From positions 1-64,000 of the forward strand of contig WGNA01000031.1 of the NCBI GenBank assembly GCA_016124755.1: DNA of 64,000 bases, given 5' to 3'. Below the pieces are notes generated by a model, which was not told the origin of the DNA, did no database searches, and worked only from the letters and a program-made list of their open reading frames with translations. Source of the DNA: Bacteroidota bacterium (GTDB lineage Bacteria; Bacteroidota; Bacteroidia; NS11-12g; UBA9320). This document shows positions 989-55,349 of the stretch, in pieces; the stretch's first letter is position 1; the number at the start of each line of letters is the position of its first letter. The translations under genes and the position numbers were made by a program.

Positions 989-1969
989 CTAATGCGAGTC
1001 AAGGATAGTTGTATTCCGTGGAAGGACGTCTGGTTTTTTGGCAAAATTTGGAGTGCCCGATTTTTTAACATTAACATCAGCACTCTTTTCAACAGTTTTC
1101 TCACCATCCTCTTTTGAATAGGTCACACCAACGGTTACTTCTAAATCACCGCTATATTCATTCTGTTCTTCAGGTGCTGACTGTTCGCAACCTTCTTCAC
1201 AATTTACTGGTTCGACTCCTTCAGCATGTTCTTCCGCTATTTCAACTTCCTCAGGTTCTTCTTCAGAAGCTGTAGATTTAACATCCACATTTATCTCACC
1301 AGACACTTCTATCTTATTTGGTGTTAAATTTATTATAAAATTACTATTGATTGAAGCGTTGGCAGGTGTTAAACCGGGTGAATTTTCAACCGGGGTTCCT
1401 GTTTTAATACTAAACTGGAACTGGACACCATTAAACTTAACTTCGTTATAGGGACTAAATGTAGTTTTTAGCCGCACGCCTCCTAGTGTTTCAAAACTCG
1501 ATTTATCTTCTAAAATAGGGAAATTCATTGCCGTGTAACAAGTTAACTTAATTTGCTTTTTGCTATCCTTCCATGAAGACATCAGTGGAATTGTTACCCC
1601 TAGTCCATAAGAAATTGGGCTTTGTTCTCTTTCTCGTCCATCAACGTCTATAAATTTGATTGGACAATTCCCTGTAAATTGATAGGGAGAATACCATGGA
1701 TAAGTTCGGAATAAGGGATCAACACTTAAAAATCTGCCGATACGCGGATTAAAAATCCTGAACCCATAGTCACATTGGTTACCATTGTTACTAATCTCGT
1801 TGTCATCCTCTTTTCCATTAAACCCAAACCTGTACCCCCCCTCAGGTGCGGCATAACCCGTCTCGGTAATTCCCATCCCAAAAGGATAGTAGTACATCCA
1901 GCCAAGATCCCTATAGGGACATCGTTTTATGCCAATACTATTTGGTGAGAAATGCATCTTTAGCATCAA
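989..1969 (-). CDS. orphan RHS repeat-associated core domain fused to a variable C-terminal polymorphic-toxin domain (a fragment; the N-terminal RHS repeats are absent)
   Basis: The N-terminal ~110 aa (YYYPFGM...RFGFNGKEDDNEISNNGNQCDYGFRIFNPRIGRFLSVDPL...YSPYQFTGNCPIKFIDVDG) match the canonical RHS core ending (...RYxxPxxGRFxxxDP...DPxG). An unrelated 200-aa acidic-rich C-terminal domain follows. The gene is only 326 aa, whereas full RHS proteins exceed 1000 aa. Its stop overlaps the integrase gene. Confidence 0.6.
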   Translation of the reverse strand: MMLKMHFSPNSIGIKRCPYRDLGWMYYYPFGMGITETGYAAPEGGYRFGFNGKEDDNEISNNGNQCDYGFRIFNPRIGRFLSVDPLFRTYPWYSPYQFTGNCPIKFIDVDGREREQSPISYGLGVTIPLMSSWKDSKKQIKLTCYTAMNFPILEDKSSFETLGGVRLKTTFSPYNEVKFNGVQFQFSIKTGTPVENSPGLTPANASINSNFIINLTPNKIEVSGEINVDVKSTASEEEPEEVEIAEEHAEGVEPVNCEEGCEQSAPEEQNEYSGDLEVTVGVTYSKEDGEKTVEKSADVNVKKSGTPNFAKKPDVLPRNTTILDSH

Positions 1970-3024
1970 ATTACGGCTTTTTGGGTAAGCTTTTCGAACA
2001 TAGCATCGGTTTGTTGGTCGAGGCGGTGCTGGTTGTATTTTACGTATTTGTAGAATTCTGTACTTCCGGGGGTGTGTCCGCTAATTTTACGAACCGTTGT
2101 TTCATCCACTCCGAGATTAAGCATCGTTGTAATAGCGGTTCGTCGCATGGTGTGGGTGCTCACCAGATCACAAAAACGGTATTGCTTTCTGCACTTGTTT
2201 GGTGCTTGCTGAATAAACGGAATTCCTCTCTGGGTTCTGTACTTGGGTAAGTCGTAAGTCCAACCGGCTAATTCAGCCAACTGTTTAATCTGTTTGTTGA
2301 AGTTTCTGCGATCCGTTTTGCGAAAGAGCATTTTACCGCGTGTTTTATTGCGTTGTACAATGGCAACGGCATAAGCGGGTAACTTAATACGGGTAAACGT
2401 ATGTGTCTTTTGAGAAATGGTTTTCAGGTACACCGAGTTGTCGCTCTGCCATTCCAGATTTTCGTTTTTCAGATTTAGTAAATCACTTACCCTCAACCCC
2501 ACTGTACAACCGAACACAAACAGGTCTTTGGTTCTTTTCTGCAACGCGTTAAGCCGGGCTTCAAATATCTCGTCCGAGATCAGAAATTGCAATTGTTCCG
2601 GTTCCAGCGCGATAATCTGTATGTCTTCTTTCCACACATGAAAGTTCTGGTAGAATGGTCCTAAGGAAATTCCCTTGTGGTGATTTACCCATTTTAAAAA
2701 GGTCTTTAGCATTTTTATATTATGCCCCACATAGTTGTCGAAATGCCCCTGGTCGTCGAACAGAAAATTGGTGAACTGCAGATACAGTTTTTCGTAGTAT
2801 CGCTTTTCCTGCTCAAACAGTCGCTTGTTATTACCGATTGATTTAATCCGCAGTTCAAATCCGGTCTTTTCAACGAACAGAATAAGCAACCGCCGCACAT
2901 ACCGGTAGTTGTTTTTTGAATCGGCAGTCATTTTTCTTCCGCCTTTCAGCATTCGTTTGTTGCGGTTGGTTGCCATCAAAAACGAATCGAACAGGGAGAG
3001 CATGTCGTATTGGGTTGTTTTCAT
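1966..3024 (-). CDS. tyrosine-type site-specific recombinase/integrase
   Basis: The C-terminal catalytic region reads LRVSDLL...HTMRRTAITTMLNLGVDETTVRKISGHT...FYKY, fitting the R...HxxR...Y pattern of phage-integrase-family recombinases. It is 352 aa and overlaps the downstream RHS fragment by 4 nt. Confidence 0.8.
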   Translation of the reverse strand: MKTTQYDMLSLFDSFLMATNRNKRMLKGGRKMTADSKNNYRYVRRLLILFVEKTGFELRIKSIGNNKRLFEQEKRYYEKLYLQFTNFLFDDQGHFDNYVGHNIKMLKTFLKWVNHHKGISLGPFYQNFHVWKEDIQIIALEPEQLQFLISDEIFEARLNALQKRTKDLFVFGCTVGLRVSDLLNLKNENLEWQSDNSVYLKTISQKTHTFTRIKLPAYAVAIVQRNKTRGKMLFRKTDRRNFNKQIKQLAELAGWTYDLPKYRTQRGIPFIQQAPNKCRKQYRFCDLVSTHTMRRTAITTMLNLGVDETTVRKISGHTPGSTEFYKYVKYNQHRLDQQTDAMFEKLTQKAVI

Positions 3025-3888: not shown

Positions 3889-4365
3889 ATGCAACCTCAA
3901 ATCAAAAAATCTAAAGAAATACAGTTAATCGGAATGCACCTGCAAATGAGTCTTTCCGAAAATCGCACACCCGAATTGTGGCGAAAGTTTATGGGTAAGA
4001 AGTCGGAAATTAAAAATGTGGAATCAACAGAAACGATTTCTATGTCGGTTTATCCGCAAGGTTATTTTAATGCGTTTAATCCGAATATGAAATTTGATAA
4101 ATGGGCTGCCATTCCGGTTTCATCTGTGGCATTTGTCCCCGATGAAATGAAGGCTGTTATTATTCCATCAGGAATGTACGCGGTTTTTAATTACAAAGGC
4201 TTGTCAACCGATCCTTCGATTTTTCGGTATATATTTAACACATGGCTTCCTGAATCAGATTACCAATTAGATAACCGGCCGCATTTTGAAATTCTGGGGG
4301 ATAAATACAAGAATAATGATGCGGAATCGGAGGAAGAGATTTGGATTCCGGTTGTGAAAAAGTAG
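3889..4365 (+). CDS. GyrI-like small-molecule-binding (AraC effector-binding domain) protein
   Basis: 158 aa. The beta-rich pattern (IQLIGMHLQMS...AVIIPSGMYAVFNYKG...PHFEILGDKY) is typical of GyrI/SbmC-like domains. Confidence 0.45.
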   Translation: MQPQIKKSKEIQLIGMHLQMSLSENRTPELWRKFMGKKSEIKNVESTETISMSVYPQGYFNAFNPNMKFDKWAAIPVSSVAFVPDEMKAVIIPSGMYAVFNYKGLSTDPSIFRYIFNTWLPESDYQLDNRPHFEILGDKYKNNDAESEEEIWIPVVKK

Positions 4366-4398: not shown

Positions 4399-5214
4399 TT
4401 GCCCGATATGGATTCTGAAATTAATTATCTCGAAGTCAACCGACAATCCTGGAACAACCGGACCGATACGCATATCGAATCTGAATTCTACGATGTTGAA
4501 GGTTTTAAAAACGGAAAAACTTCTTTAAACCCAATTGAACTCGAATTGTTAGGGGATGTGAGCGGAAAGAAAATCCTGCATTTGCAATGTCATTTCGGTC
4601 AGGATTCTATTTCGCTTGCTCGAATGGGCGCATCGGTTGTCGGCGTTGATCTTTCGGATATCGCCATCAACAGAGCAAAGGTTTTGGCACAATCGGAAAA
4701 TGCGGATGTTCGATTTATCTGCTGTGATATTTACCATCTGAAGGATAATTTAGACGAAAAATTCGATCTCGTTTTTACCAGTTACGGAACGATAGGCTGG
4801 TTACCGGATATGAATCGATGGGCTGAGGTTATTTCCCATTTTTTAAAACCCCAAGGGAAATTTGTTTTTGTGGAATTTCACCCGGTGGTATGGATGTTTA
4901 ATGATTCGTTTGATTCGGTTGGATATAATTATTTTAATTCAGGACCAATCATCGAGGAGGAAAACGGAACCTACGCGGATCGAGAGGCGGATATCAGTCA
5001 AAATTTTATTACCTGGAATCATTCCATCAGTGAAGTGATCAATGCGCTAATTCGAAATAATATGAATATTCGAAGCCTTGATGAATTTGATTATTCGCCC
5101 TATAACTGTTTTCGGGATACGGTAGAATCTGAACCGCAGAAGTTTCGGATAAAGCATTTGGAAAACATGATTCCGATGGTGTATTCGGTGGTGGCGGTGA
5201 AGATGGCGAATTAA
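4399..5214 (+). CDS. class I SAM-dependent methyltransferase
   Basis: Motif I ILHLQCHFGQDSISLARMGASVVGVDLS, then post-I D/E and motif II FDLVFTS. 271 aa. Confidence 0.75.
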   Translation: MPDMDSEINYLEVNRQSWNNRTDTHIESEFYDVEGFKNGKTSLNPIELELLGDVSGKKILHLQCHFGQDSISLARMGASVVGVDLSDIAINRAKVLAQSENADVRFICCDIYHLKDNLDEKFDLVFTSYGTIGWLPDMNRWAEVISHFLKPQGKFVFVEFHPVVWMFNDSFDSVGYNYFNSGPIIEEENGTYADREADISQNFITWNHSISEVINALIRNNMNIRSLDEFDYSPYNCFRDTVESEPQKFRIKHLENMIPMVYSVVAVKMAN

Positions 5215-5270
5215 TATTTTGAATAAGGAAGTTTCCAGACCAATACGGTATTTTACTGGTATTAATTTCT

Positions 5271-6310
5271 GTGGGGCTATAGCCACCCCTCCCCGAATGA
5301 AAGTTCGGGATCTTTTATTGGATCGGCAAAAATTTCGATGATATTAAGTGCTTATTTTCATTGAGATATTTGTATGAAAATATGTGCGGCTTGTTTCACG
5401 CAGAGACGCAGAAGATTGTGTGAATTGTTAAAGTTTAATTTGAGTTCGCAGAGGTTGCCCGAGAATGGAAAATTTGTTGTGAATGATTAGAGGCTATTTC
5501 CGCCGGGCAATTGCCACCCCTTACCCGGATGAAAGTTCGGTGTATTGAAATAACAAAACAAAAAACCAGACAATTTTAAACATTTACTTTTTTAAATGTA
5601 TTCCATTTTTCACGCAGAGTTCGCAGAGGACAACAACGAGCTTTAAGCTATACCGAATTATTAGATTTGAGAGGCGCAGATGTGTATGATGGAGAGTAAG
5701 TGGGTGCCATGTCTTAAAAAACATCTAATCATTATGCGGAACTCCCCTTAGCCAAATCCGTCATTGAGGGAGTAGAGAAAATTTTGTGGGCTATAGCCGC
5801 CCCTCCCCGGATGAAAGTTCGGGATCTTTTTAATGACCTGCAAAAACTCGGTTGAATTTAAATGCTTATTTCTGATTGATATAGTCGGAAAAAAATTGTG
5901 TAACTTGGTTCACGCAGAGGCGCAGGAGATGAGGAATGAGGAATTTAAATGTTTGGGTTATAACAGCTCACTGTTTTTGTTGAGGTGATGATGAGTTCGC
6001 AGAGTTGGCACTTAAACGTGCGGTTCTTACCTAATGAATTATTGAGTTGGATAGAACCTCATTTGGCCGACCACCCTCGCACCTTATGTTATGGAATTTA
6101 TTTCGCAGGTGTATTTCTGCGGGGCTATAGCCACCCCTCCCCGGATGAAAGTTAATCAGTTTGTGGTTTCGAAACAAATTAACCGCTTGAATTAAATGCT
6201 TATTTCTGAATGGGAAATGCCGGGCAATAGCCACCCCTCCCCGGATGAAAGATACAAATTCATTGCACATCAAACGCAACCGGATGATCAATTAAGTACT
6301 TAACCCAGAC
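5271..6310. repeat. mosaic intergenic repeat array, family A, cluster 1
   Basis: Five copies of the core GGCTATAGCCACCCCTCCCCGGATGAAAGTT. They are interleaved with the modules AAATGCTTATTTCT and TTCACGCAGAG(A/G)CGCAG. No ORF is supported. Confidence 0.8.
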
Positions 6311-6419
6311 ACCAACAAACTTTATAATTTTAATTCTTTATGCTCATAATAGATGTTTCTACGGGTGTAGATCATTTATCTTATTTTTAACTTTTTAATA
6401 AATGCTTATTGGTTTAAAT

Positions 6420-6765
6420 GCAAGTAAACCAACTTGTGGTTCACTTCCATTGTAGTAATAGAAAGAATAAAATGCATGGTGCGAAGCGGATCCTAAAACA
6501 AGAATAGGATCGCGTGGGTTGGCCGTCGGAAAGGTGGGATATCCACGGCGGGAATTTTTCATTTGGTAGAAAATCGGGAAAGTGCTTGACACCTCTTTCC
6601 CAGATTTTCAACAAATGATAAAGGGCGCTTACCGGCTTTCTTTCCGACTTGATTTTTTGCTTACTTTTTTATCAAGAAAAAAGTAAGAATATAAATTGTA
6701 AATTAATCCCCAACCAATTTACAATCTTGGTGTATCCATACGGAGAAGCATTTATTATTTTATTA
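6420..6765. repeat. family B repeat element, copy B1 (~340 bp)
   Basis: The same ~330-bp sequence recurs at 18215-18548 (same orientation) and inverted at 51760-51945, 53198-53505 and 54748-55040. It has a GC-rich core (GGATCGCGTGGGTGGGCCGTCGGAAAGGCGGGATAGCCCCGGCGGGAATTT) and an internal perfect hairpin, CTTACTTTTTTATCAAGAAAAAAGTAAG. Confidence 0.8.
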
Positions 6766-6788
6766 TACAAAAAAGAATTTTAAAGCTA

Positions 6789-7946
6789 TTAGCCCTCTTG
6801 TCCCGCCAACTTAATTCCCTGATTCCCTGCCCATGTACTAATGCTGTGTTTTGCAATAGCTGCAGCCATTAAATCCGGGAATAAATCGGGAGAACAACCA
6901 AAGACCGGTATTCCTAATTGTGCTAAAAAATCAGCATTAGAATGATCAAAAGAAGGATTTCCATTATCATCCAAAGCTAAAAGAGTTATTACCTGTACCC
7001 CGGAATTATTGAGTGCAGCAAAGCGCTTTCTCATTTCTTCCGTATCTCCTCCTTCGTATAAATCTGTAATTAAAAAGAGAATAGTATCCGTTGGTCTGCG
7101 AATAATCTGCTGACAATATTGAAGTGCCTGATTAATATCGGTTCCGCCTCCAAGCTGAACTCCAAATAACAGATCTACCGGATCTTTGAGATCTTCGGTA
7201 AGGTCGGCAACACTTGTATCAAATACCACCATGCGCGTATCCACCGCCGGAATAGAAGCGATCACCGCACCGAAAATACCGGAATACACAACGGATGCTC
7301 CCATAGAGCCGCTTTGATCAATACATAAAACGATGTCTCGAAGAGAACGACGTTTTTTCCCAAAACCGATTCGAGTTTCCGGAATAATGGTTTTGTAATC
7401 GGGTTGATAATGTTTCAGATTTTTCCGGATGGTTTCCGGCCAGTTTATTTCATTAAATCTGGGATTTCGGTTTCGAACAGATCGGTTAATACTTCCGGTT
7501 ATCGCCTGTCGGGTAGGGGATTCCAGCTTTCGAATTAATTCATCCACCACTTTTTTAATTACCATTCGGGCGGTGGCTTTTGTTTTTTGCGGAATCAATC
7601 TGCCCATGGTCATCAGATTGGCGACCAGATGAACATCCGGTACAACCGATTCCAGCATTTCCGGCTCGGTGAGCATTTGTTGAAGATTTAAACGACTGAG
7701 GGCATCCTTTTGTAATAATTGAACAGTTGATGCCGGAAAATATTCGCGTATATCGCCCAACCATCTTGCAACATTCGGAGAAGATGGGCCCAGTCCTCCT
7801 TTTCTGTCTGAATTATAAAGAGCTTCTAATGTTTTATCAATTCCGGATTCCAGTTTGTTCAATTCCATCGGAATTTCTGTCTGTACTTCTTTTCCGAGTA
7901 ATAACCGCCAGCGCTTTAATACTAATTCCTGCTCCTCTTTATTCAT
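6789..7946 (-). CDS. VWA (von Willebrand factor A) domain protein
   Basis: MIDAS motif VLCIDQSGSMGAS with downstream T and D residues. 385 aa. The start overlaps the stop of the upstream gene by 8 nt. Confidence 0.8.
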   Translation of the reverse strand: MNKEEQELVLKRWRLLLGKEVQTEIPMELNKLESGIDKTLEALYNSDRKGGLGPSSPNVARWLGDIREYFPASTVQLLQKDALSRLNLQQMLTEPEMLESVVPDVHLVANLMTMGRLIPQKTKATARMVIKKVVDELIRKLESPTRQAITGSINRSVRNRNPRFNEINWPETIRKNLKHYQPDYKTIIPETRIGFGKKRRSLRDIVLCIDQSGSMGASVVYSGIFGAVIASIPAVDTRMVVFDTSVADLTEDLKDPVDLLFGVQLGGGTDINQALQYCQQIIRRPTDTILFLITDLYEGGDTEEMRKRFAALNNSGVQVITLLALDDNGNPSFDHSNADFLAQLGIPVFGCSPDLFPDLMAAAIAKHSISTWAGNQGIKLAGQEG

Positions 7947-10206
7947 CGTTCTGCTTTTTGAGTTCTAACAATGATGCGTAAAATGGGATGATGAGCTGAG
8001 CACGTTTTTGGTCCCATCTCGTATCATCAGGTTCTGTTACACCGGATTGAATCTGTTGGAGTTTCAACGCTAACTGGCGCTTTTCTGCCGGAGAATAGGT
8101 CGAAACGGTTCTTCGTAATAATGGAATGATTTCCTGAAAAATTTGGTCGTTGAGGCCAATCAACCAGCGACTGATGATGTTTCTGATTACATCGTCGTAC
8201 AGTAAAATTGATGCACCGTCCATCAGAAATCCTTCAATCCAGGCAGCGGATGCCGAAGGTGGATTTGCAAGAGATAACGATCTGCCGAAAACGGATGCCG
8301 TTTCTTCTTCATCAAATTGATTTCGGTCGTAAAGGATCTTACAGCAGATGCCGTTCACCATTGGAGCACTCTGTTCAGAATCCGCAACTTTCTGAATGGT
8401 AGTAAACCAATCATCCGAAAATTCTTCCTCTTCCAACAACAAAACCGCATCGTGAACCTCGCGGATTCGGTTAGTGAGATTTAAGGCCTCTTCTTCATTA
8501 ATACCGTTGGGAGCATACTCCAGCCCCGGCAAAATCCGGTAAAAAACAGAACGCACAATAGAACTGATCATTACCAGATCCGTGTTTCGCACATTCCCGT
8601 ACCGTTTTATTCGAACCAATGGGGCAAAAGCTGCCATCAAAGCCGGAATATCTGACGACGATGCCGACAAATCATCGAGTCGTTGAAGCGCTGTTTCAAT
8701 TCCGGTTGTTAATTCAGTTGGAATCGCGTCTTCGATTAATGAACTGATTTCTGAAATGCTGTTGCAGTTCCCGGCGAGATGAATTAAAAATTGATTAGCC
8801 GCCAATTCAATAGTATTCCCCCAAATGGCTTTTTCAATTAATTCAATCACCATTTCCGGATCCCATTGAAGTGTCCATTCTTCTTTAAAAGTTCCTTTAC
8901 CGCGGCTGAATGCTTCATAAGCCCACTGAATTTTCAGAATCTTCAGCCGGTGGAATAGAATGCTTTTTTGGAGATCCGTTTCTTTTCGCAAATCAAGCGT
9001 AATGGATTTCGGAGTTTCCGACAGCTTTAACCGAAGTGATTTTACCGATTTTTCAAAATCCCGGTAAATGGGTGCCTGCGGTGTTCCTTCCGGTATTTCA
9101 CCGATCACAGAACCAACAATAAGATCGCGCCAGATGAGCTTCATCAGAACATCGTCACCCATGCACATCACGGCTATAGTGGATTCGATGTGCTCGTTAA
9201 GTCCCGGTTTGTTGTAATTGCGCAAAGCGGCCAGTGCATTCGACAACTTCACACTTTCAATTATGTGAGCTGATGAAACATCCGTTGCATTTTCGCGGAA
9301 CACAGCGGCCGTTTTGGAAAGCCAGTATGTTCCGTCATCATCCAGCATTTGCCACAGATAACGGTACCAGCCCGGAGACCGCACTCCCGCTCCGTACCCT
9401 GTGTGAAACGACATTCGGGTGTAGGTCCACGGAACCCAGGTCATTTCAATTTTCGTTTTCGGCAAACCCTTTAACAGGGAATTATCCCCTTTAAATTTTT
9501 TACTATCGGTTAATGCGGGAACGTGCCATGCTCCGCACACAACTACAATATTTTGGAATCCTTCCTTTTCGGTACTTTTCAGAATTTTCCGCATCCAGGC
9601 TTCCCGTAACGCATCGATTTTTTGCACATCCGGAAATTCCTCTCGCAATGCAGATATTACTTCAGTGATTCCATCAAAAACTTCCAGAGCTGTTTCTGCC
9701 CTTTCTACCTGATGTTCCCACCACAGATCTCCATCATCGAAACCGGTTAGCTTCGCCAGATATCCAAATGGATCCTCCTTAACCTGCTCTGAATCCTTAT
9801 CGTCTATCGTGTATCCTTCTATTTCCTGATCCGTTACCGTTACTGTTACTGTTACCGTTTCAGTTACCGTTTCAGTTACCGTCCCCGTCCCCGCCAACGC
9901 ATGATGCAACGGCAAATCCATGAACCGCACAGGAATATCTTTTTCCTGTGCGAACCGAATCGCATTCCACTCCGGAGAGTATTCTGTAAAAGGGTAGAAA
10001 TGTGCGTTTTTCGGATTATCAGTGGCATACGCCAGCATCGCAACCGGAGGCTTCATATTCGCATGGCTGAACCATTTGAGGAGGGTATCGCCTTCTGGCG
10101 GACCTTCAACCAGAATCACATCGGGATGTAATTCTTCCAACACATGTAAAACGTGTCTTGATGAACCAGGGCCATGGTGTCGGATACCTAAAACGTGAAC
10201 CGGCAT
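7939..10206 (-). CDS. DUF5682-like large protein of the MoxR/VWA cassette
   Basis: 755 aa. The N-terminus MPVHVLGIRHHGPGSSRHV is as I recall for DUF5682-family proteins. It contains an in-frame low-complexity TVTETVTETVTVTVTVT tract. Confidence 0.6.
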   Translation of the reverse strand: MPVHVLGIRHHGPGSSRHVLHVLEELHPDVILVEGPPEGDTLLKWFSHANMKPPVAMLAYATDNPKNAHFYPFTEYSPEWNAIRFAQEKDIPVRFMDLPLHHALAGTGTVTETVTETVTVTVTVTDQEIEGYTIDDKDSEQVKEDPFGYLAKLTGFDDGDLWWEHQVERAETALEVFDGITEVISALREEFPDVQKIDALREAWMRKILKSTEKEGFQNIVVVCGAWHVPALTDSKKFKGDNSLLKGLPKTKIEMTWVPWTYTRMSFHTGYGAGVRSPGWYRYLWQMLDDDGTYWLSKTAAVFRENATDVSSAHIIESVKLSNALAALRNYNKPGLNEHIESTIAVMCMGDDVLMKLIWRDLIVGSVIGEIPEGTPQAPIYRDFEKSVKSLRLKLSETPKSITLDLRKETDLQKSILFHRLKILKIQWAYEAFSRGKGTFKEEWTLQWDPEMVIELIEKAIWGNTIELAANQFLIHLAGNCNSISEISSLIEDAIPTELTTGIETALQRLDDLSASSSDIPALMAAFAPLVRIKRYGNVRNTDLVMISSIVRSVFYRILPGLEYAPNGINEEEALNLTNRIREVHDAVLLLEEEEFSDDWFTTIQKVADSEQSAPMVNGICCKILYDRNQFDEEETASVFGRSLSLANPPSASAAWIEGFLMDGASILLYDDVIRNIISRWLIGLNDQIFQEIIPLLRRTVSTYSPAEKRQLALKLQQIQSGVTEPDDTRWDQKRAQLIIPFYASLLELKKQNDE

Positions 10207-10212
10207 AAAGTT

Positions 10213-11295
10213 TTAAATCAAATCACGACAAGAGCGATACACATCTTTCCAGCCATCCCTGCTTTTCATAACGGTATCCATATATTCCTGAAAAACCACT
10301 TTATCCTGCACCGGATCTTTAACAATGGTTCCGATGATACCGCTTGCCAGATCATCTGCCTGAAGTTTACCGTCTCCAAAATGTTGTGATAATGCGAGCC
10401 CACTGTTCATAACCGAAATAGCCTCTGCGGTTGAAAGAGTGCCGCCGGGAGATTTCAGCTTGGTTTTTCCGTCGATGGTAACACCGTTCCGGAGTTCGCG
10501 GAAAATGGTTACAACTCTTTTTATTTCTTCTGTAAAAGATTTATCGGGTGTGAATTCGGAGGTTTTCAGAAATCCTGTAACACGCTGCCGGACAATTTCC
10601 ACTTCTTCTTCAATGGTGGCCGGAACTGGAAGAATTACCGTATTAAATCTTCTTTTTAATGCACTGGATAAGTCATTAACCCCTTTATCGCGGTTGTTGG
10701 CAGTTGCAATAACATTAAAACCTCTCGTTGCCTGCACTTGTGTGTTGAGTTCGGGAACCGGCAGCATTTTTTCGGAAAGAATGGTAATCAACGAATCCTG
10801 AACATCTGAACCGATACGGGTTAATTCCTCTACCCGAACAATTTTTCCATGTTTCATGGCTCGCATTACCGGTGTTTCAACCAATGCCCGTTCCGAGGGA
10901 CCTTCCGATAAAAGCAAAGCGTAATTCCATCCGTACCGAACCGCTTCTTCGCTGGTTCCGGCTGTTCCCTGAACCAAAAGTCCGGAGTCGCCGGTGATCG
11001 CTGCTGTTATGTGCTCCGACACCCATGACTTTGCAGTACCGGGAAGTCCGTACAGTAACAAAGCCCGGTCGGTTGTGAGGGTTGCAATGGCAATCTCCAT
11101 GAGTCTTTTATTACCGATGTATTTGGGCGTTATCTCAAATCCGCTTTTTAGTTTTCCTCCCATCAAATACGTTAGAACCGAAGAAGGTGACATCTGCCAG
11201 CCTTCCGGTTTTTTCCCGGAATCCGATTCTTTAATGGCATTTAATTCAGCTTCGAATTCCTTTTCTGCGGGTAGTCGTAATATGTTTTCAGACAT
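10213..11295 (-). CDS. MoxR-family AAA+ ATPase
   Basis: Walker A LLYGLPGTAKS, Walker B/sensor IVRVEEL...ATANNRD, and arginine finger SALKRRF. 360 aa. Confidence 0.85.
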   Translation of the reverse strand: MSENILRLPAEKEFEAELNAIKESDSGKKPEGWQMSPSSVLTYLMGGKLKSGFEITPKYIGNKRLMEIAIATLTTDRALLLYGLPGTAKSWVSEHITAAITGDSGLLVQGTAGTSEEAVRYGWNYALLLSEGPSERALVETPVMRAMKHGKIVRVEELTRIGSDVQDSLITILSEKMLPVPELNTQVQATRGFNVIATANNRDKGVNDLSSALKRRFNTVILPVPATIEEEVEIVRQRVTGFLKTSEFTPDKSFTEEIKRVVTIFRELRNGVTIDGKTKLKSPGGTLSTAEAISVMNSGLALSQHFGDGKLQADDLASGIIGTIVKDPVQDKVVFQEYMDTVMKSRDGWKDVYRSCRDLI

Positions 11296-11300
11296 AATAA

Positions 11301-12794
11301 TTAATTGAGAAGATTATTTGAATTGAGTTGCTTTTTAAGATTAATGATATCCAGCATTTCGTCTAAGCGTTTTATCCAGAAATGATTTTCCAATTTGGTG
11401 AATTCAGTTTTGTAGGATTCTAACATTCCTGTAATGGAAACCGGCAAATAGAGCGAGAGTTCACGGATTTTCGGGCTATCTACATTGTACGGATGTTCCA
11501 GTAATTGATTAAAAATAATTTCAGAAACACCCGGATCTATTACCGTATATTCACCATCTGTAAACTGATCTATTAATTCATTTATCTGCATGGATCTGGC
11601 TAGTTTCTGAGCCAGTTCTTTCTTTTCATAAACTGAGAAAAACGAAATCATTTCGCTACTTATCAAAACCTTTTCAGATTCGATCAGCGCTTTAGCCCAT
11701 TTTTTATTTTTAAAATGAGTTGCACTCATGGCGGCAAAAGGAGCCAGAAAATCAACATTCTCATGGCTTAATAATAGTTGAATTAACTCATACTCGGAAA
11801 TGCCGAGTGTTTGGGAAATTAATTCAGGATTTGTTAGGCCAATGATTTGACCGGCGATAAATACCGCATCTGTTAATTGCTTTATGTTCGATGTTTCCTC
11901 AACTCCGGCGTCGAGTAATATTTTTTCCGGTTTGCCGGGAAAAGCAAAATGGATAACCTTTTTCTTTTTAATTAACATTACCCGTTGCTCATCAATCTGA
12001 ATGGCTTTTTTTAAATAATTTAGACACGCTTTCGATATATCGGAGCCGGGAATAAAACACAAAGCGCGATATGCTGCATTACGTACTTTAATACTCCGAT
12101 CGGATAAACAGGATTCAAAAAATGGCTGATCATCAGAATTAATTTTCTGGCTCAGGGCATCAACTAAAAACTCCCGCATATCGGCGTTTTCGGCAGAAAA
12201 ACTTTCTGATAAAATGAGTCGTGCAGTGTTTGGGTCGTTCTTTAGTAATGATTTAAACCATTGTTTTCGAATCGCCGGAGAGCCGGTTTCCCAAATATTT
12301 TCATCCGAATCAGAAATACTTGATTTATTCGCCCAATCCGGATTAATACTTCGCAGCCATTTCCCGGTTTCGCCCTCGACATCCGACAATAATTGCGGAT
12401 CTATTTTATTTCTTTGATTAAAGTACATAAGATCTGAAACCAAAAATCCGGGTACAATTATTCCTCGTTTTCTGAAATTCGTCAAAAGATAAGAAACGAG
12501 GACGGCGTCTGATTCCTGAAGATATTTTTTGAAGTAATGCGTTATTTCAGCAGGGGCAATGGGTTTTGTCTCGTTTGGACAAACCGGGAATTCGCCTTTA
12601 ATTTCAACTCCGTTAAATCCGGCTTCGTTGATGGCAAATACAAGTGCAATGGATTTCAGAAACGCGTCTTCTGTATCGCTTTCATTTTCTGCGACAATCT
12701 GCAATAATTCCTTTGGTAAATCAAGTATACTCCCTCCGGCTCTGCTGGTTCCGAGAGTGGCGGTTTTGGTAATATTTGTTGTGTTAATTTTCAA
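11301..12794 (-). CDS. alpha-helical protein (DUF5691-like) of the MoxR/VWA cassette
   Basis: 497 aa with no catalytic motifs. Its position between the SWIM and MoxR genes matches the recurrent annotated neighbourhood. Confidence 0.45.
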   Translation of the reverse strand: MKINTTNITKTATLGTSRAGGSILDLPKELLQIVAENESDTEDAFLKSIALVFAINEAGFNGVEIKGEFPVCPNETKPIAPAEITHYFKKYLQESDAVLVSYLLTNFRKRGIIVPGFLVSDLMYFNQRNKIDPQLLSDVEGETGKWLRSINPDWANKSSISDSDENIWETGSPAIRKQWFKSLLKNDPNTARLILSESFSAENADMREFLVDALSQKINSDDQPFFESCLSDRSIKVRNAAYRALCFIPGSDISKACLNYLKKAIQIDEQRVMLIKKKKVIHFAFPGKPEKILLDAGVEETSNIKQLTDAVFIAGQIIGLTNPELISQTLGISEYELIQLLLSHENVDFLAPFAAMSATHFKNKKWAKALIESEKVLISSEMISFFSVYEKKELAQKLARSMQINELIDQFTDGEYTVIDPGVSEIIFNQLLEHPYNVDSPKIRELSLYLPVSITGMLESYKTEFTKLENHFWIKRLDEMLDIINLKKQLNSNNLLN

Positions 12795-14095
12795 AAGGAA
12801 TAATAAATTGAATTAAACCAAATCCCCAGAATCATGAATGTAGTTCTGTGAATACAGCCAAAAATGCTTGTTGGCTTGCCACCAGTTATTGATAATGCCT
12901 TCATAATTTCCAATTCCGGATTTATTAATTCAAGCCCAATATTATCGCTGTCCTTTAGCATCCATTTCTGATTGTGCCGAACAACGGAGACTGCTGAAAA
13001 AACAACCGGGAATTCGTTCCCGAAGGGTTGATTAATCCGGTAAGCTGTTTTCGCATCTAAAGCTAGGGTAATGCCGGAAAAACCGGATATGACGGTACAT
13101 CCGGATGAGGTTTTTCGTAAAGCGGAAGGAATAGCCCGGAGGTTTTGTTTGCCGGGATAAAAATGGACATCCGCCTCGATTGTGGTATTGGCGAGATAAT
13201 GTGTTTCCATGATTTGTCCGGGTGCAAAGAATTGAAGTAGTTGAGCGAACCGTTTATCTTGTTCACTATACATCCAGATTTTTTCCATCGTGAGTCGGTC
13301 CATCTCTGATTGCTGACAGGAAAGAACCATCCAGTTTCCTGTAATTGCATCCGTTTTTAATACTTCTTCTTTTGTGATATTCCAGCCGATCCACTGTTCG
13401 AGATCGCTGTGGCGTTCTTCATCCAGTACGTTTCGGTTTACATACGTTTCACTTAGCAGGTAAAGCGATGATGCCTGATACATTAATTCTTCCGGCCAGC
13501 TTTGTTGGCTGAAATCTATTTCATTGAATTGCCTGAGTCGGTTTGCTAATCCGCCAGCCTGAGCATCAACCATTCGGGAAATAATATTTGCATTAAACTG
13601 AAACCGGTTTTGTGGAATGGAAACGATGCCATTTCGAACGAGATCTTTCAACCAAAGTTGAAGTTCTTCGATACCGTTTCTGACTTTTTCTTCCCGTGAT
13701 TCAATTCGCTTTGCTTTGGCCTCTGGATCCACGGATTTTGATTCCGATGATTCCTTTTTTTCGGCACGTGAGTTTCGTTTATCGAGCCATTCCTGAACAT
13801 CTTCAGGATTTGGATTCTGGGTAAATTCTGATGTGTTTCGGAGTTGAAGGATCAGAATGGAGAGTCCGTGTTTACAGGGAAATTTTCGACTTGGGCACGA
13901 ACATTTAAAGGCGATGTTACCAAGATCAACCATTACCCGATACGGAAGTTTCCCGCTACCTTTACAATTTCCCCAGAGAGCGTTTTCACTTCTGCCCGTA
14001 TCAGACCAATTCGAAACAACCGCTAATTTCTCCCCGGCTTTCACAGAGGCTTCATCAGGGGCAAGTCGTGTTATTTCGTCGAGACTAAAAGACAT
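12791..14095 (-). CDS. SWIM zinc-finger protein
   Basis: CSCPSRKFPCKHGLSILI gives a CxCx(n)CxH SWIM signature. The probable start is MSFSLDEI at 14093-14095; the longer ORF up to 14200 is less likely. There is a 4-nt ATGA overlap with the downstream gene. Confidence 0.7.
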   Translation of the reverse strand: MSFSLDEITRLAPDEASVKAGEKLAVVSNWSDTGRSENALWGNCKGSGKLPYRVMVDLGNIAFKCSCPSRKFPCKHGLSILILQLRNTSEFTQNPNPEDVQEWLDKRNSRAEKKESSESKSVDPEAKAKRIESREEKVRNGIEELQLWLKDLVRNGIVSIPQNRFQFNANIISRMVDAQAGGLANRLRQFNEIDFSQQSWPEELMYQASSLYLLSETYVNRNVLDEERHSDLEQWIGWNITKEEVLKTDAITGNWMVLSCQQSEMDRLTMEKIWMYSEQDKRFAQLLQFFAPGQIMETHYLANTTIEADVHFYPGKQNLRAIPSALRKTSSGCTVISGFSGITLALDAKTAYRINQPFGNEFPVVFSAVSVVRHNQKWMLKDSDNIGLELINPELEIMKALSITGGKPTSIFGCIHRTTFMILGIWFNSIYYSF

Positions 14096-14304
14096 GGTAT
14101 CGGGGTAAAAATAAGAATTGAATTTCACGATTCTGAAAAGGAGCGAAAAACTTTTTATGCCCAATCGACAGTCGTTTTTGCGGGCATAATAATCAGACAA
14201 GCCTGCTGCATTTGTAATTTTTATTTTTAACTGTTGGGTCCAGACTTAACAAGAATGACCAAAGCGCGATTTGCAGAATTAATAAATCGCTACTTTCGAA
14301 ATAC

Positions 14305-15544: not shown

Positions 15545-16790
15545 GTAGGGCTGTGGCACCCTTGCTCGGATGAAAATTAATAGATTTGGAAATTTAAACA
15601 AACAAACGTGCAGAAAAATATACTTAATGTTGGATTGGAAATGCTGGGGTAAGAACCACCCCTCCCCGGATACAAGATAAGCGATTCCTGAATCGTAATC
15701 AAATATACGTGCAGAAATAAATGCTTAAAGTTGGTTCGAAAAAGCTGGGGCAATAGCCACCCCTCCCCGGATGAAAGTTCGGGATCTTTTATTGGATTGG
15801 CAAAAATTCGGATGATATTAAGTACTTATTTTCAATGAGATGTTTGTGTCTAAAAATGTGTGGATTGTTTCACGCAGAGACGCAGGAGAATGGGAAATAT
15901 GTTGTGAATGATTAGAGGCTATCTCAATACTTCTACGAATATTTGAATTGAAGGTGGGACACTATTTCCGCGGGGCAGTAGCTACCCCTCCCCGGATGAA
16001 AGTTACTCGATTAATTGGTCTGGAACAAATAAACGAGCTGAATTAAATGCTTAATGTTGTATAGAAAAGGTTTGGGTAAGAACCACCCCTCCCCGGATGA
16101 AAGTTCGGGAACTTTTATTGGATCGGCAAAAATTCGGATCATATTAAGTACTTATTTTCAATGAGATGTTTGTGTGTAAAAATGTGTGGATGGTTTCACG
16201 CAGAGAGGCAGGGGAATGGGTGAAATATGTTGTGAATGATTAGAGGCTATCTCAATACTTCTACGAATATTTGAATTGAAGGTGGGACACTATTTCTGCG
16301 GGGCAGTAGCTACCCCTCCCCGGATTAAAGTTACTCGATTAATTGGTCTGGAACAAATAAACGAGCTGAATTAAATGCTTAATGTTGTATAGAAAAGGTT
16401 TGGGTAAGAACCACCCCTCCCCGGATGAAAGTTCGGGATTCTTTGATTAGTTCCCAAATTAAAGAGCAGAAATAAGTGTTTATTTGATTTAAAGGTCAAT
16501 GAGTATTTCAAGTAGTTCACGCAGAAGCGCAGATCTTTGGTTCGTTTTGAATGCGAATATGCTATAGGAATATTCAGGTTTTGAAAATGCATCGATGGGA
16601 GTCGCGGAGAATGCGGTATGCCAGAAATCCAACCGATTATTCAAATGTTTGTTCTTGTAATTTCCGGCCGGGCAATAGCCACCCCTCCCCGAATGAAAGT
16701 TCGGGAATTGTTATCAAACATCAACTATCGGATACCCGGATAAGCACTTATTTTTGTTTGCACAACTTCAGTTCAGATGAAAGTTCAAAA
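15545..16790. repeat. mosaic intergenic repeat array, family A, cluster 2 (includes a ~340-bp near-identical tandem duplication)
   Basis: About 8 copies of the CCACCCCTCCCCGGATGAAAG core. The segment 15745-16085 is repeated almost exactly at 16085-16430. Confidence 0.8.
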
Positions 16791-16858
16791 CCAAATCGGC
16801 TACGGTAGTTGTACAGGAGACGGCCATTGAACATCCTTTTTAAACAACAACTGAGCAA

Positions 16859-17201: not shown

Positions 17202-18194
17202 ATGATCGGGAAAAACAATTCCAATACAAGATTGCGTTACCTGTTGGAGATGCTCGATAATTGTCCGAATGAAATACAGTCTCAGAGAATGAGATTAATC
17301 CTGATTCTATGTATTGTTCTTAATTCTAATATCCAGGCTCAGAATTATACAAAGTCAGATTCCGTACTACTTAATAATTATTACGACACAATTCCGCCTC
17401 AATCGGAATGGATGTGGGGTGAACAAGTAAACAGGGTAAATAAATATGGTTTTGTGGAGGGGAAACAAATTCGGTTTGATTCGAAAGGAAATTTAATAAC
17501 TATCACAATGTTTCCGGAGAAAGTACTTTATCAACAAGCAAATTATGTTTGGAAAGCAGAATTTGAAAATGATACTTTAGTGTTGATGAGTGATTCTTCC
17601 GGTTCCGAAATACGATGGTTTTCTAATGGAATTATAGAAGAAGCTATTACCCAATATCGCTGCGGGGATGATAAGTTCGTTTCAAAATATAAAGCCAATA
17701 TCAATGGATTAGTGACGGAAACATCTTTACTCCGATATTACTGGAAAGAAGATACCAGTATGTTTAATCATTGTTTTCGCAAATGCAGGTTTGTTTCCGA
17801 ATTAATATATTCTTTTAAATATTATAATAATGGAAATCCAAAATATTCATTTAATAACGATACCGCAATTTATTGGAATGAAAATCAAACCATTCGAACA
17901 AAGATGTATCCGGATGGTTCTGTAACCTTTAATGACGGAGGCAAAGTAATTGACAGGCAATTTACATGGTGGGAGCCGGGCGACAGTTGTTCGGAAGATG
18001 TTCAGGTAAAGATGGTGGTATCCTACGAATTAGAAGATGTTATTGATTTATATGTGTACAAGATGATACCGAATAAAAGAGCGGAATACTTCCGGTGGAA
18101 ATGGGATCAATCAGGTCGTCGGCTTGTATCGGCAAGTAACTGGGAAGGGGAATTGCCATGGAAAAGGTTTTCAGAATTTAATGATTTATACTAA
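17202..18194 (+). CDS. hypothetical secreted protein
   Basis: Probable signal peptide MRLILILCIVLNSNIQAQ (from an internal Met). 330 aa. Confidence 0.5.
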   Translation: MIGKNNSNTRLRYLLEMLDNCPNEIQSQRMRLILILCIVLNSNIQAQNYTKSDSVLLNNYYDTIPPQSEWMWGEQVNRVNKYGFVEGKQIRFDSKGNLITITMFPEKVLYQQANYVWKAEFENDTLVLMSDSSGSEIRWFSNGIIEEAITQYRCGDDKFVSKYKANINGLVTETSLLRYYWKEDTSMFNHCFRKCRFVSELIYSFKYYNNGNPKYSFNNDTAIYWNENQTIRTKMYPDGSVTFNDGGKVIDRQFTWWEPGDSCSEDVQVKMVVSYELEDVIDLYVYKMIPNKRAEYFRWKWDQSGRRLVSASNWEGELPWKRFSEFNDLY

Positions 18195-18214
18195 TATGTT
18201 TCTCCGGTTAATTA

Positions 18215-18548
18215 CACCAACTTGTGGATCACTTCCATTTAAGTATTAAAAAGAACAAAATGCATTGTGCGAAGCGGATCCTAAAACAAGAATAGGATCG
18301 CGTGGGTGGCCGTCGGAAAGGCGGGATAGCCCCTGGGGGAATTTCTTATTTGGTAGAAAATCGGGGAAAATGCTTGACACTTCTTTCCCCAGATTTTCAA
18401 CAAATGATAAAGGGAGCTTGGGCAGCTTTTTTTCGACTTGATTTTTTGCTTATTTTTTTATCAAGTAAAAAGTGAGAAGAAATGCGAATGTAAATCAATA
18501 CCAAACTGATTTACAATAATGGTGTATCCAAACGAACGAGCATTTTAT
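18215..18548. repeat. family B repeat element, copy B2
   Basis: About 85% identical to 6420-6765, including the hairpin CTTATTTTTTTATCAAGTAAAAAGTGAG. Confidence 0.8.
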
Positions 18549-18749
18549 ATTAATTCGTTAAGCCTAAAAAATAAAATGTTTCAGTACAATGGATAAGTAT
18601 AAAAATATTAAAATAGGAACATTTGTTCTGGCCTGATAATGAATTTGTAAGAGATGAAAAGGCACTCAATATTTTTTTCGAGATGATAGATGAAAATGAT
18701 TTGTTGTATTGCTTAATGAGTTATTTTCGCTTTTGTAATAGCCACCTGT

Positions 18750-51668: not shown

Positions 51669-51759
51669 TGAGAAGTAGGATAGAATAATCTTGGAATATT
51701 GTCCGGGATGATGCTCCGTAGGGAACGAATTGTTTTTTGTTGAAGAGTTTCTGGTTTAA

Positions 51760-51945
51760 TGTTTCCCCGATTTTCTACCTTAAGACAAATTCCCGCCGGG
51801 GCTATCCGGCCTTTCCGACTGCCCACCCACGCGATCCTATTCATGTTGTGGGTTCCGCTTCGCAAAATTCATTTTGTTCTTTTTAATACTAAAATTGAAG
51901 TGATCCGACAAGTTAGTGCAATAAAGCGGAGAAGCATTTAATTTA
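51760..51945. repeat. family B repeat element, truncated copy B3 (inverted orientation)
   Basis: Matches the GC-rich half of B4/B5 (TTTCCCCGATTTTCTACC...CGCTTCGCA...). Confidence 0.7.
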
Positions 51946-53141: not shown

Positions 53142-53197
53142 TGTTCAATTCTGATTTTTAAAAAATGCTTGTCCGTTTTGATACGCCGAGATTGTTC

Positions 53198-53505
53198 TAC
53201 AATCTCTTTTCTTCTTACTTTTTTCTTGATAAAAAAGTAAGCAAAAAATCAAGTCGGAAAGAAAGCTGCCCAAGCGCCCTTTATCATTTGTTGAAAATCT
53301 GGGGAAAGAGGTGTCAAGCACTTTCCCGATTTTCTACCAAATGACAAATTCCCGCCGGGGCTATCCCGCCTTTCCGACGGCCCACCCACGCGTTTCTATT
53401 CTTGTTTTAGGATCCGCTTCGCACAATGCATTTTGTTCTTTCTACTGCTATAATGGAAGTGATCCACAAATTGGTGCTATTGCAATGAAGCGGTGAAACA
53501 TCTTA
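53198..53505. repeat. family B repeat element, copy B4 (inverted orientation)
   Basis: Carries the hairpin CTTACTTTTTTCTTGATAAAAAAGTAAG and the GC-rich core. Confidence 0.8.
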
Positions 53506-53589
53506 AAAAATTTAAAAATAAGAAAAATGATTTACACCCGGGAACACATTTTTGGCGAGCATAAAGTATCAAAACTGGTTGGTCTCTGT

Positions 53590-54165
53590 GTTAAGTGCTT
53601 AATTGATCATCCGGTTGTGTTAGATGTGCAATGAATTTGTATCTTTCATCCGGGGAGGGGTGGCTATAGCCCGGCATTTCCCATTCAGAAATAAGCATTT
53701 AATTCAAGCGGTTAATTTGTTTCGAAACCACAAACTGATTAACTTTCATCTGAGGGGTGGCTGTTGCCCAGCCGCAATAACTCTCCGAAATAGATTCCAT
53801 AACATAAAGTGCGAGGGTGGTAGGCCGAATGAAGTTCTATTCAACTCAATAATTCATTCGGTAAGAACCGCACGTTCAAGTGCCAACTCTGCGAACTCAT
53901 CCTCATCTCAACAAAAGAAGTGAGCTGTTATTACTCAAACATTTAAATTACGCATTCCTCATCTCCTGCGCCTCTGCGTGAAACAAGCCGAATTTTGGGG
54001 ATACTTACAGTATAGATAAAGCACGTTGTTGTCCTCTGCGAACTCTGCGTGAAAAATGGAACGCATTCAAAAAAGTAAGTGTTTAAAATTGTCTGGATTT
54101 TTGTTTAGTTATTTCAATACATCGAACTTTCATCCGGGGAGGGGCGGCTATAGCCCACAGTCAAC
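53590..54165. repeat. mosaic intergenic repeat array, family A, cluster 3 (inverted orientation)
   Basis: Three reverse-complement cores CTTTCATCCGGGGAGGGGTGGCTATAGCC plus CTGCGTGAA modules. The terminal segment is the reverse complement of the 6280-6305 end of cluster 1. Confidence 0.75.
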
Positions 54166-54624: not shown

Positions 54625-54747
54625 TGCCAGAATTTTCCCGGAAAACCAGTTAGCAGAAACAATGGATGTCCCGAACTCTTTCTGCAGATCAAAATAAATG
54701 CTTGTCTGTATGCATACACCAAGATTGTAAATTGGTTTGGGGGTCGA

Positions 54748-55040
54748 TGTACAATCTCTTTTCTTCTCACTTTTTTCTTGATAAAAAAGTAAGCAAAAAA
54801 TCAAGTCGGAAAGAAAGCTGCCCAAGCTCCCTTTATCATTTGTTGAAAATCTGGTGAAAGAAGTGTCAAGCACTTTCCCGATTTTCTACCAAATGACAAA
54901 TTCCCTCCGGGGCTATCCCGCCTTTCCGACGGCCCACCCACGCGATCCTAGTCTTGTTTTGGGATCCGCTTCGCACATTTCATTTTACTAAAATGGAAGC
55001 GATACACAAGTTGGTGTAAAAAAGCGGAGAAACATTTCAA
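54748..55040. repeat. family B repeat element, copy B5 (inverted orientation)
   Basis: Near-identical to B4. Confidence 0.8.
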
Positions 55041-55349
55041 AATATGTTCGGTTGTGGTAATCGCAACTGCGTTGAATGTGGGTTAGAAACAAACTGTCGT
55101 TCACCAATTTCCAGGTGGCCAGATAACCGCGTGAACAATCGGTAGAGGTCCAGGGTAGCGTGTCGCCGTTAATTGATCTGTCTGATTTATACCGGAAATA
55201 CGATTCCAACGGATTGGAATGCATTATAAACGTATCGCCCTTATAAATGAGACGGTCGCCGGTCTGTTCGGTTGCGAATGTGAGGGCGGGAAAAAGTAGG
55301 AGAAAGTAGTTGGAGTAATTTCTTCAAATAGGGGGATTTTGGTTCGCAT

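Follow-up and report, generated by a model that had tools for sequence, protein, structure and literature searches.

Miniature inverted-repeat transposable elements (MITEs) have been described in Porphyromonas gingivalis, where BrickBuilt, MITE239 and MITE464/PgRS carry terminal inverted repeats (TIRs) of about 12 nt whose ends, GAGACCTTTGCA, match those of IS5-family ISPg elements (Klein et al. 2015, PMC4596501). These MITEs are present in several to about 20 copies and are mostly intergenic, and their target-site duplications (TSDs) are short, variable and not always recognisable (PMC4596501). They are the closest described relatives in kind of the repeat analysed here, which is called family B and which occurs in a 64-kb stretch (the window) of the 68,938-bp contig WGNA01000031.1 from an uncultured Bacteroidota genome, a metagenome-assembled genome (MAG) with the locus tags GC181_. 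Like the P. gingivalis MITEs, family B is non-coding, a few hundred base pairs long, bounded by TIRs of about 12 nt, nested with other repeats and carried by a Bacteroidota host. Unlike them, it has the ends AATGYTTCTCCG, an 8-bp TSD and no internal minisatellite, and it has no sequence similarity to them. We propose that family B is most probably a non-coding, non-autonomous DNA transposon (a MITE) of 340-352 bp that was moved by a transposase duplicating 8 bp of its target. A MITE of this type is an ordinary kind of element, to which family B adds new ends.

Correia elements (CREE) of Neisseria are 100-155 bp long and duplicate TA, and the RUP and ERIC elements measure about 107-127 bp. Elements of the Correia, ERIC and RUP types form a hairpin over their whole length, may be located at the ends of genes and can supply promoters, terminators and RNA processing sites to their neighbours. 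Family B is likewise a small, foldable inverted-repeat element, but it measures about 340 bp and has an 8-bp TSD. Rickettsia palindromic elements (RPE) insert in frame and are translated within the host protein. Palindromic repeats are found inside genes in both cases, whereas the family B copy within a gene (c5, see below) brings stop codons and splits it. Target duplications of 8 bp are made by the insertion sequence (IS) families ISL3, IS256, IS1595, IS66 and IS6. These resemble family B in the length of the duplication and in their short TIRs, while their ends, such as the GGCTCTT... of typical ISL3 elements, are unlike AATGYTTCTCCG. Two further kinds of element were considered and ruled out. 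The TIRs and the 8-bp duplication do not fit an IS200/IS605-derived element, either a PATE or a TnpB omega-RNA element, as these lack both and have a subterminal hairpin at each end. A unit of about 340 bp with TIRs and a TSD does not fit a REP/BIME/REPIN repeat either, and no Y1/RAYT-type open reading frame (ORF) was found in the window. Repeats of that kind are imperfect palindromes of 20-40 nt, single or in inverted pairs, that lack a target duplication and go with a RAYT transposase.

Five copies of family B, c1 to c5, were recovered in the window by repeat finding, MAFFT alignment and nhmmer with a hidden Markov model (HMM) of the family (E-values from 2e-119 to 9e-65), and no further copy was found (Table 1). 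The number of copies and their orientations agree with the original prediction for this DNA. The boundaries given in that prediction were too short, c4 and c5 having lost 35-50 bp on the right and c1 and c2 about 20 bp on the left; those used here were set by a TIR/TSD model with the termini AATG...CATT. An identity of 85-95% had been expected among the copies. The four complete copies are within this range, with pairwise values of 86.5-91.3%, whereas c3 is only 77-82% identical to them. c3 keeps the left TIR and the GC-rich core, carries an internal deletion of about 14 nt and has neither the hairpin module nor the right end; it is a decayed 5' fragment of family B. The GC-rich core is present as originally described, its string being exact in c4, changed at one or two positions in c5 and c3, and more diverged in c1 and c2. 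The copies are dispersed over four independent loci within the 64 kb, and all of them lie in or beside intergenic regions crowded with other repeats. The divergence of 9-13% among the copies suggests that family B is old, and it may be inactive now.

The complete copies are bounded by an imperfect TIR, AATG(Y)TTCTCCG...CGGAGAAGCATT. Comparison of the left end of each copy with its reverse-complemented right end revealed a two-part inverted repeat, which consists of the terminal 12 nt, AATG(Y)TT(C/G)TCCG, followed some 20 nt inward by a subterminal CACCAA..TTGT. The consensus of the left end is AATGTTTCTCCG and that of the right end is AATGCTT(C/G)TCCG (reverse complement). When up to two mismatches were allowed, the 13-mer AAATGYTTCTCCG had 14 matches in the window compared with 5.6 expected, and no shuffled sequence reached 14. 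Half of these matches (7/14) are at the ends of family B elements in inverted orientation, which supports the imperfect TIR first proposed for both ends. The left TIR of c1 has decayed to AATGCTTATTGG. A second TIR-like sequence was observed about 45 bp beyond the left ends of c1 and c4 (AGATGTTTCTACGGGTGTAG and AAATGTGTTCCCGGGTGTAA, respectively; 6351-6363 and the region 53530-53545), and it may be the solo end of an older copy.

The element ends are flanked by a direct duplication of 8 bp, which is exact at c5 and agrees at seven of eight positions at c2 (consensus TTATA(C/T)TA); none was clear at c1 or c4. The duplicated targets of both c5 and c2 are AT-rich. Random pairs of 8-mers from the window match at all eight positions with a probability of 5e-5 and at seven or more with a probability of 7e-4. 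In addition, the homology among copies stops exactly at the inverted termini in c2 and c5.

Since c5 is located within a protein-coding gene, its filled site was compared with the empty site, using orthologues from other genera. On the minus strand, about 95 open codons lead up to the element, and 170 open codons in another frame begin just past it. The two flanking frames join in phase via one TATTTTGA, read as TAT TTT GA(T), or Y F D. The joined sequence of 246 aa has 46 homologues, and the best full-length ones (P0002-P0004, 251-265 aa) are 55-58% identical to it over 100% of the query. One full-length homologue is from Marinifilum caeruleilacunae, and Marinifilum is the closest source, with 58% identity. 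The joined frame aligns gap-free with homologues of 251-277 aa, in which YFD is single. At the junction, ...RTYFDLQKEFGT... is opposite ...PEYFDLKEEFGT..., and likewise ...CDYHNRTYFDLQKEFGTS... is opposite ...CYGKDPEYFDLKEEFGTV..., both with no gap. The uninterrupted sequence as reconstructed is ...ACATATTTTGATCTG.... Since removal of the element and one duplicate restores the gap-free frame, c5 is an insertion, and the 8 bp were duplicated by it.

The sole 100% match of the joined query is a C-terminal piece of 146 aa annotated by NCBI as GC181_15995, which is the tail of the split gene and not a small gene. Although the element and the duplication add up to a multiple of three (340 + 8 = 348 bp), the insertion brings stop codons and splits the gene. 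The N-terminal part of the split gene (55037-55347, minus strand) has no in-frame start; the sole ATG (55347) lies out of frame, and joining it to the fragment would take a shift of 1 nt within the signal-peptide region. The missing start may be due to decay after the insertion, to a further frameshift or to a homopolymer assembly error.

Not all copies arose in this way. c1 and c4 lie in an inverted duplication of about 1.0-1.2 kb, which contains an indel of about 230 bp at 5646-5903 and includes units of another repeat, family A. They have a 6-nt insertion and the left flank in common. We conclude that c1 and c4 spread together with family A by segmental duplication, not by separate transposition, and that the five copies represent about four insertion events and one block duplication. 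The whole family could be explained in a similar manner, as immobile copies produced by segmental duplication or recombination (a REP/BIME-like mosaic) whose TIRs and TSDs are chance features of AT-rich DNA, and the clear case of c1 and c4, their lack of clear duplications and the repeat-packed surroundings of all copies are consistent with this. However, c5 interrupts a conserved ORF with colinear homologues and has an exact 8-bp duplication, a 7/8 duplication flanks identical termini with equal spacing at c2, and the homology between copies ends precisely at these termini in both. An immobile origin of the family is therefore distinctly improbable.

Transposition of a MITE accounts for these features. 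A DDE-type transposase encoded elsewhere in the genome would bind the inverted repeats of family B, would excise or copy the element, and would integrate it by staggered cuts of 8 bp; such an enzyme would come from a family that makes 8-bp duplications, such as ISL3, IS256, IS1595, IS66 or IS6. At c5, its action would have duplicated 8 bp of an AT-rich target and split a conserved gene. The assignment as a MITE is based on the inverted termini together with the 8-bp direct duplication, the insertion in a gene and the absence of coding capacity. Family B is structurally what is expected of a MITE, being non-coding and within the size range of about 50-1000 bp, with TIRs, a TSD, a filled site that can be set against an empty one, and several dispersed copies.

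Several observations weigh against this assignment. No DDE transposase ORF and no transposase with family B ends was found in the 64-kb window. A clear duplication is present in only two of the four complete copies, as the flanks of c1 and c4, which are AT-rich and of low complexity, match at 5/8 and 4/8 positions; because the segmental duplication has given both copies the same left flank, their flanks are uninformative. The two TIRs of a copy match at only 9-10 of 12 positions. Covariation of the hairpin stem across genera, described below, shows selection on something besides transposition. Moreover, mobility rests on five copies in one contig, and the family was not found in other genomes or metagenomes. 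A search of 185,579 species genomes with the GC-rich core pattern gave one chance match in a GC-rich coding region, two different core patterns had no match in JGI metagenomes, and the hairpin pattern had none in viral contigs. No family B match was obtained by blastn against phages, and against plasmids the hairpin module was matched but no family B copy; when a whole copy was used as the query, only about positions 252-313, the hairpin region, aligned. There is one indication of copy number in the source sample. The 3-kb contig with the VWA gene next to c1 in a short-read assembly (SRR10063241) ends 77 bp beyond the VWA stop codon, within the family B element. A break inside the element is the expected behaviour of a multi-copy repeat, suggesting that family B is multi-copy in that sample.

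Table 1. Positions of family B copies and associated features in the 64-kb window.
Feature	Position	Strand	Basis or comparison
c1, complete, 352 bp	6401..6752	+	alignment, family HMM, end comparison
c2, complete, 351 bp	18194..18544	+	alignment, family HMM, end comparison
c3, 5' fragment, ~209 bp	51730..51938	-	alignment, family HMM
c4, complete, 340 bp	53164..53503	-	alignment, family HMM, end comparison
c5, complete, 340 bp, within protein-coding gene	54697..55036	-	alignment, family HMM, end comparison
c5 TSD, upstream side of split gene, TATTTTGA on minus strand, codes Y-F-D	55037..55044		8/8
c5 TSD, downstream side, TATTTTGA on minus strand	54689..54696		8/8
c2 left TSD, TTATACTA	18186..18193		7/8 vs 18545-18552
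c2 right TSD, TTATATTA	18545..18552		7/8 vs 18186-18193
Gene split by c5, joined product ~263 aa	54184..55330	-	N-part ~55330-55037, C-part 54696-54184
Hairpin module of c1, CTTGATTTTTTG-CTTACTTTTTT-ATCAAG-AAAAAAGTAAG-AAGAA, perfect hairpin	6644..6695	+	
Hairpin module of c2, 3 changes, two still G-U on this strand	18433..18484	+	
Hairpin module of c4, perfect hairpin	53206..53257	-	
Hairpin module of c5, 1 change giving a G-U pair	54758..54809	-	
Duplication arm 1, family A units and c1	5518..6752		partner 53164-54144, 85-92% identity
Duplication arm 2, c4 and family A units	53164..54144		repeat finding

The ORFs called inside the element had been regarded as mere translations of the repeat, and our results agree with this view. 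Starting from a start codon, no ORF in family B is longer than 65 aa, and the ORFs are broken in some copies. The word-sharing search of 5.8 billion proteins found no homologue of a family B ORF, and there was no Pfam match. When 1.84 billion representatives were searched exhaustively with HMMER, the sole hits were to translated sequences of other repeats, with E-values of 5e-6 or weaker (for example, the CRISPR-array peptide FQLTSSRRGW). The longest candidate is a frame of 87 codons on the reverse strand that spans most of c4, begins just after the hairpin, has its stop inside the left terminal repeat and is largely kept in c5 and c1. It could represent a protein of about 85 aa, perhaps a remnant of the C-terminus of the parent transposase. 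Against this, the frame lacks an ATG, and it is disrupted by frameshifts in c1 and c2 and by a stop codon in c5. Its codon differences are 24 synonymous and 94 non-synonymous, no better than in other frames (17/89 and 38/79), so the substitution pattern is not of the coding type, and the homology searches gave no support. We regard a family B protein as extremely improbable.

Within the complete copies, 60-100 bp from the right end, there is a hairpin module of about 50 nt, which is composed of CTTGAT-T6-G (CTTGAT-T5-7-G across genera), a T-rich arm of 11 nt, the loop ATCAAG, an A-rich arm of 11 nt and an AAGAA-rich tail. A perfect 11/6/11 hairpin had been predicted for every copy. This holds for c1 and c4, while c5 has one mismatch, c2 has three, and c3 has no hairpin. 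A covariance model of the module matched only the four family B copies in the window. Outside this genome, the module was found by the blastn search of plasmids in Persicobacter sp. JZB09 at 28 places on five replicons, in Aureibacter tunicatorum at three and in Chondrinema litorale at one, all Cytophagales. Among 14 distinct module sequences, 94.8% of the stem cells are paired, compared with 68-72% when the partners are slid. Five of the 11 pairs change on both sides, and no shuffle reaches the observed covariation score. For example, TTTTTT/AAAAAA is replaced by TTTCTC/GAGAAA in Aureibacter pAT2, and AC/GT by CG/TG in Persicobacter. Outside the module, the loci of Aureibacter, Persicobacter and Chondrinema are unlike family B, with local alignment scores in the range of shuffled sequence. 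A deeper homology through the common GCGAAGCG was considered and was not significant. No Rfam family covers the module in an E-value mode search of four related loci, and its sequence was not found in the literature searched.

The surroundings of the module differ among these genera. In Persicobacter it is inside tandem intergenic units of about 235-393 bp, with an AUG within the 3' arm. In Aureibacter pAT6 it is located in the spacer that separates cas7d from cas5d and precedes the ATG of cas5d by 9 nt, and in pAT2 it lies 70 nt before a pair of overlapping tyrosine recombinase genes. In Chondrinema it is 49 nt before a coding sequence. The pAT6 module is held by the 243-bp cas7d-cas5d spacer of a type I-D CRISPR-Cas operon (L003 1310-1552), and about 60 nt further upstream this spacer has a repeat (CGTTAAAAAATTTTTACTGTTTGAGCAAAGCGAGTTT...) in common with pAT2. 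On Persicobacter sp. JZB09 plasmid 4 (CP012862.1, L005 19640-20600) and at other loci, tandem units of about 393 bp end in the module. The reverse strand of the Persicobacter unit has a protein-like frame (KIKAVINVGG...PESIKATFAKS...) whose reading frame differs from copy to copy. A coding role was rejected because stops interrupt it in some of the copies, Pfam gave no match, and relatives are confined to Persicobacter.

The original prediction named a multi-copy non-coding RNA (ncRNA) gene as the alternative to a MITE. In this case, the copies would be paralogous genes acting through their transcript, a structured small RNA (sRNA) or cis-regulatory RNA in which the hairpin served as the main structure or as the terminator. 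The module is the part of the element that argues for an RNA: different genera have retained it, with covariation in its stem (94.8% paired against about 70%, 5/11 pairs), and where the stem is altered in c2, in c5 and in the copies of Persicobacter, G-U pairs result on the forward strand. In Aureibacter and Chondrinema, start codons follow it on the same strand at a distance of 9-70 nt. However, the relatives elsewhere are limited to this 50-nt module and do not extend to the rest of the element. In an RNAalifold analysis of the four complete copies, none of the 103 pairs was compensatory outside the hairpin and the covariation term was unfavourable. Deviations from Watson-Crick pairing showed no strand bias, with nine G-U (tolerated only on the forward strand) against seven A-C (tolerated only on the reverse strand). 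Shuffled sequence does fold far less well than either strand (z = -4.5 and -4.3), and we attribute the equal folding of the two strands to family B being a palindromic DNA element and not a strand-specific RNA.

Searches for known RNAs and transcription signals gave little support for such a gene. Family B matched no family of Rfam at any threshold tried: in gathering mode, the sole match of Rfam 15 over the whole window was the tRNA at 27922-27993, and in E-value mode nothing better than E=0.54 was obtained over 5000-7000. No U tract follows the hairpin stem on either strand, and no promoter of the Bacteroidota type (TTG...TAnnTTTG) was seen by eye on either strand. The sole signal from a sigma-70/terminator scan was weak, a terminator-like site in a second, variable hairpin of c4, on its reverse strand. 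The hairpin was therefore rejected both as an intrinsic terminator and as a promoter, having no U tract and no TTG/TAnnTTTG arrangement. An ncRNA gene also does not explain the presence of c5 in a gene with a target duplication. Hence, of the two possibilities first named, the MITE is supported by the TIRs, the 8-bp TSD and the split gene, while the ncRNA gene, which finds no support in Rfam, compensatory changes or strand bias, is improbable.

Arms of 11 bp around a 6-bp spacer are also the geometry of XerC/D-type pdif sites and other recombinase core sites. The element or its 11/6/11 hairpin could thus be a site for a tyrosine (Xer-like) recombinase, in the style of a pdif/IMEX module. In agreement with this, covariation of the arms preserves the palindrome, the module recurs many times on Persicobacter replicons, its pAT2 instance in Aureibacter is close to two tyrosine recombinase genes, and the window itself contains a tyrosine recombinase gene (1966-3024). 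In contrast to pdif sites, however, the family B hairpin is internal and does not form a boundary, and the junctions of the element are inverted repeats with an 8-bp duplication, the mark of staggered-cut transposition. The recombinase of the window and the Aureibacter pair are unrelated beyond the catalytic motif, and a recombinase gene adjoins only one of 17 inspected module instances. A recombinase site as the explanation of family B is very improbable.

A broader role for the module is possible but rather unlikely in our estimate. It could be an independently conserved and undescribed Bacteroidota cis-element that was captured by unrelated repeats in different orders, those of this Marinifilum-like MAG and of the Cytophagales genera Persicobacter, Aureibacter and Chondrinema. 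It might then be a structural site, a binding site for a protein or recombinase, or an RNA hairpin by which an A-rich translation-initiation region is masked, and family B would be its vehicle.

Besides the MITE, the window contains other repeats, and its intergenic regions are unusually rich in repeats of several families. Family A is recognised by a core box, CCACCCCTCCCCGGATGAAAG, preceded by GGGGC(A/T)ATAGC, which occurs 13 times where 0 are expected, at 5283-6251 (+), 15656-16699 (+) and 53643-54147 (-). It consists of tandem units of 326-328 bp at 15894-16549, which are 99% identical, and of box-containing modules, with the recurring motif TTCACGCAGAG(A/G)CGCAG. The ORF of 85 aa at 16551-16808 is probably spurious because a family A box is inside it. 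The two arms of the inverted duplication that contains family A, c1 and c4 are 46 kb apart.

A recognition sequence common to families A and B had been suggested from a motif at the family B ends that recurs in family A. The exact 9-mer AAATGCTTA occurs eight times, whereas 1.1 occurrences are expected. Family A accounts for six, each of which precedes the box CCACCCCTCCCCGGATGAAAG by about 29 nt, and one is the decayed left end of c1. The consensus ends of family B have only the 8-mer AAATGCTT in common with family A, where it is internal to the units. AAATGCTTATT is limited to the left end of c1, which is a diverged copy of the end. No end of family A could be demonstrated at the shared motif in the units of the window. 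Judged from these motif counts, a transposase recognition sequence shared by families A and B appears not to be supported.

A third repeat family is present at 26657-27384, 29176-29987 and 49243-50057 in both orientations. It contains short tandem repeats of the GAATTCC/GAATTGG type, palindromic units of about 70 nt (CTGACGAATGCC...GGCATTGTCAG) and the motif GTTCAC(Y)ACGGAGCGTCATCCC. Its copies flank the tRNA (minus strand) and follow WYL and alpha-2-macroglobulin genes. A piece of the GTTCAC(Y)ACGGAGCGTCATCCC motif abuts the truncated end of c3 (about 51700-51725). The short piece of a different repeat family that adjoins c3 is GTTCCCTACGGAGCATCATCCC.

The remaining copies of family B are close to genes. 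c2 landed on the stop codon of the ORF at 17202-18194, whose TAA spans the junction between the duplication and the element and is kept because the element supplies its last base; this ORF is an orphan, as the homologue search returned only the self match. The end of c1 lies downstream of the convergent VWA gene (6789-7946, minus strand), 36 nt beyond its stop codon, and 22 nt separate the right end of c4 from the ATG of the UPF0158 gene (52719-53141, minus strand) that follows it.

Two proteins of the window are identical to MBI1308106.1 and MBI1308107.1, and several have C-terminal sorting domains of the type IX secretion system (T9SS), in agreement with a Bacteroidota host. The VWA gene next to c1 belongs to an operon of five genes (6789-14200, minus strand) encoding a SWIM zinc finger protein, DUF5691, a MoxR-type AAA_5 ATPase, DUF5682 and the CoxE-like VWA protein, and the operon is bracketed by repeat-filled intergenic regions. 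Beside the repeat-rich region of c3-c5, the stretch 56219-63781 (minus strand) is AT-rich (30-35% GC compared with about 42% elsewhere) and encodes DrmB (E 2e-59), DrmA (E 5e-171) and an ORF of 676 aa with no match. From its gene content it resembles a portion of a DISARM anti-phage system, carried on what is probably an acquired island. The tyrosine recombinase gene (Phage_integrase, minus strand) overlaps the ORF at 989-1969 (minus strand) by 4 nt, and within this ORF there is an RHS-tip-like motif (NPRIGRFLSVDPL). The region 3889-4365 (plus strand) encodes a Cass2/GyrI-like 'integron-associated effector-binding' protein.

Few MITEs have been described in Bacteroidota, and family B adds one with new ends and an 8-bp TSD. 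It explains the breaks of short-read assemblies at these loci, and ORFs called within it should not be annotated as genes. The arms of the inverted duplication could recombine and invert the segment between them. The family HMM and the end sequences provide a lead to the parent IS upon a scan of the whole genome. The wider interest is in the hairpin module, which is found in unrelated repeats of distant Bacteroidota and belongs to no curated RNA family; if it has a function, mobile repeats would here be transporting a regulatory or binding module.

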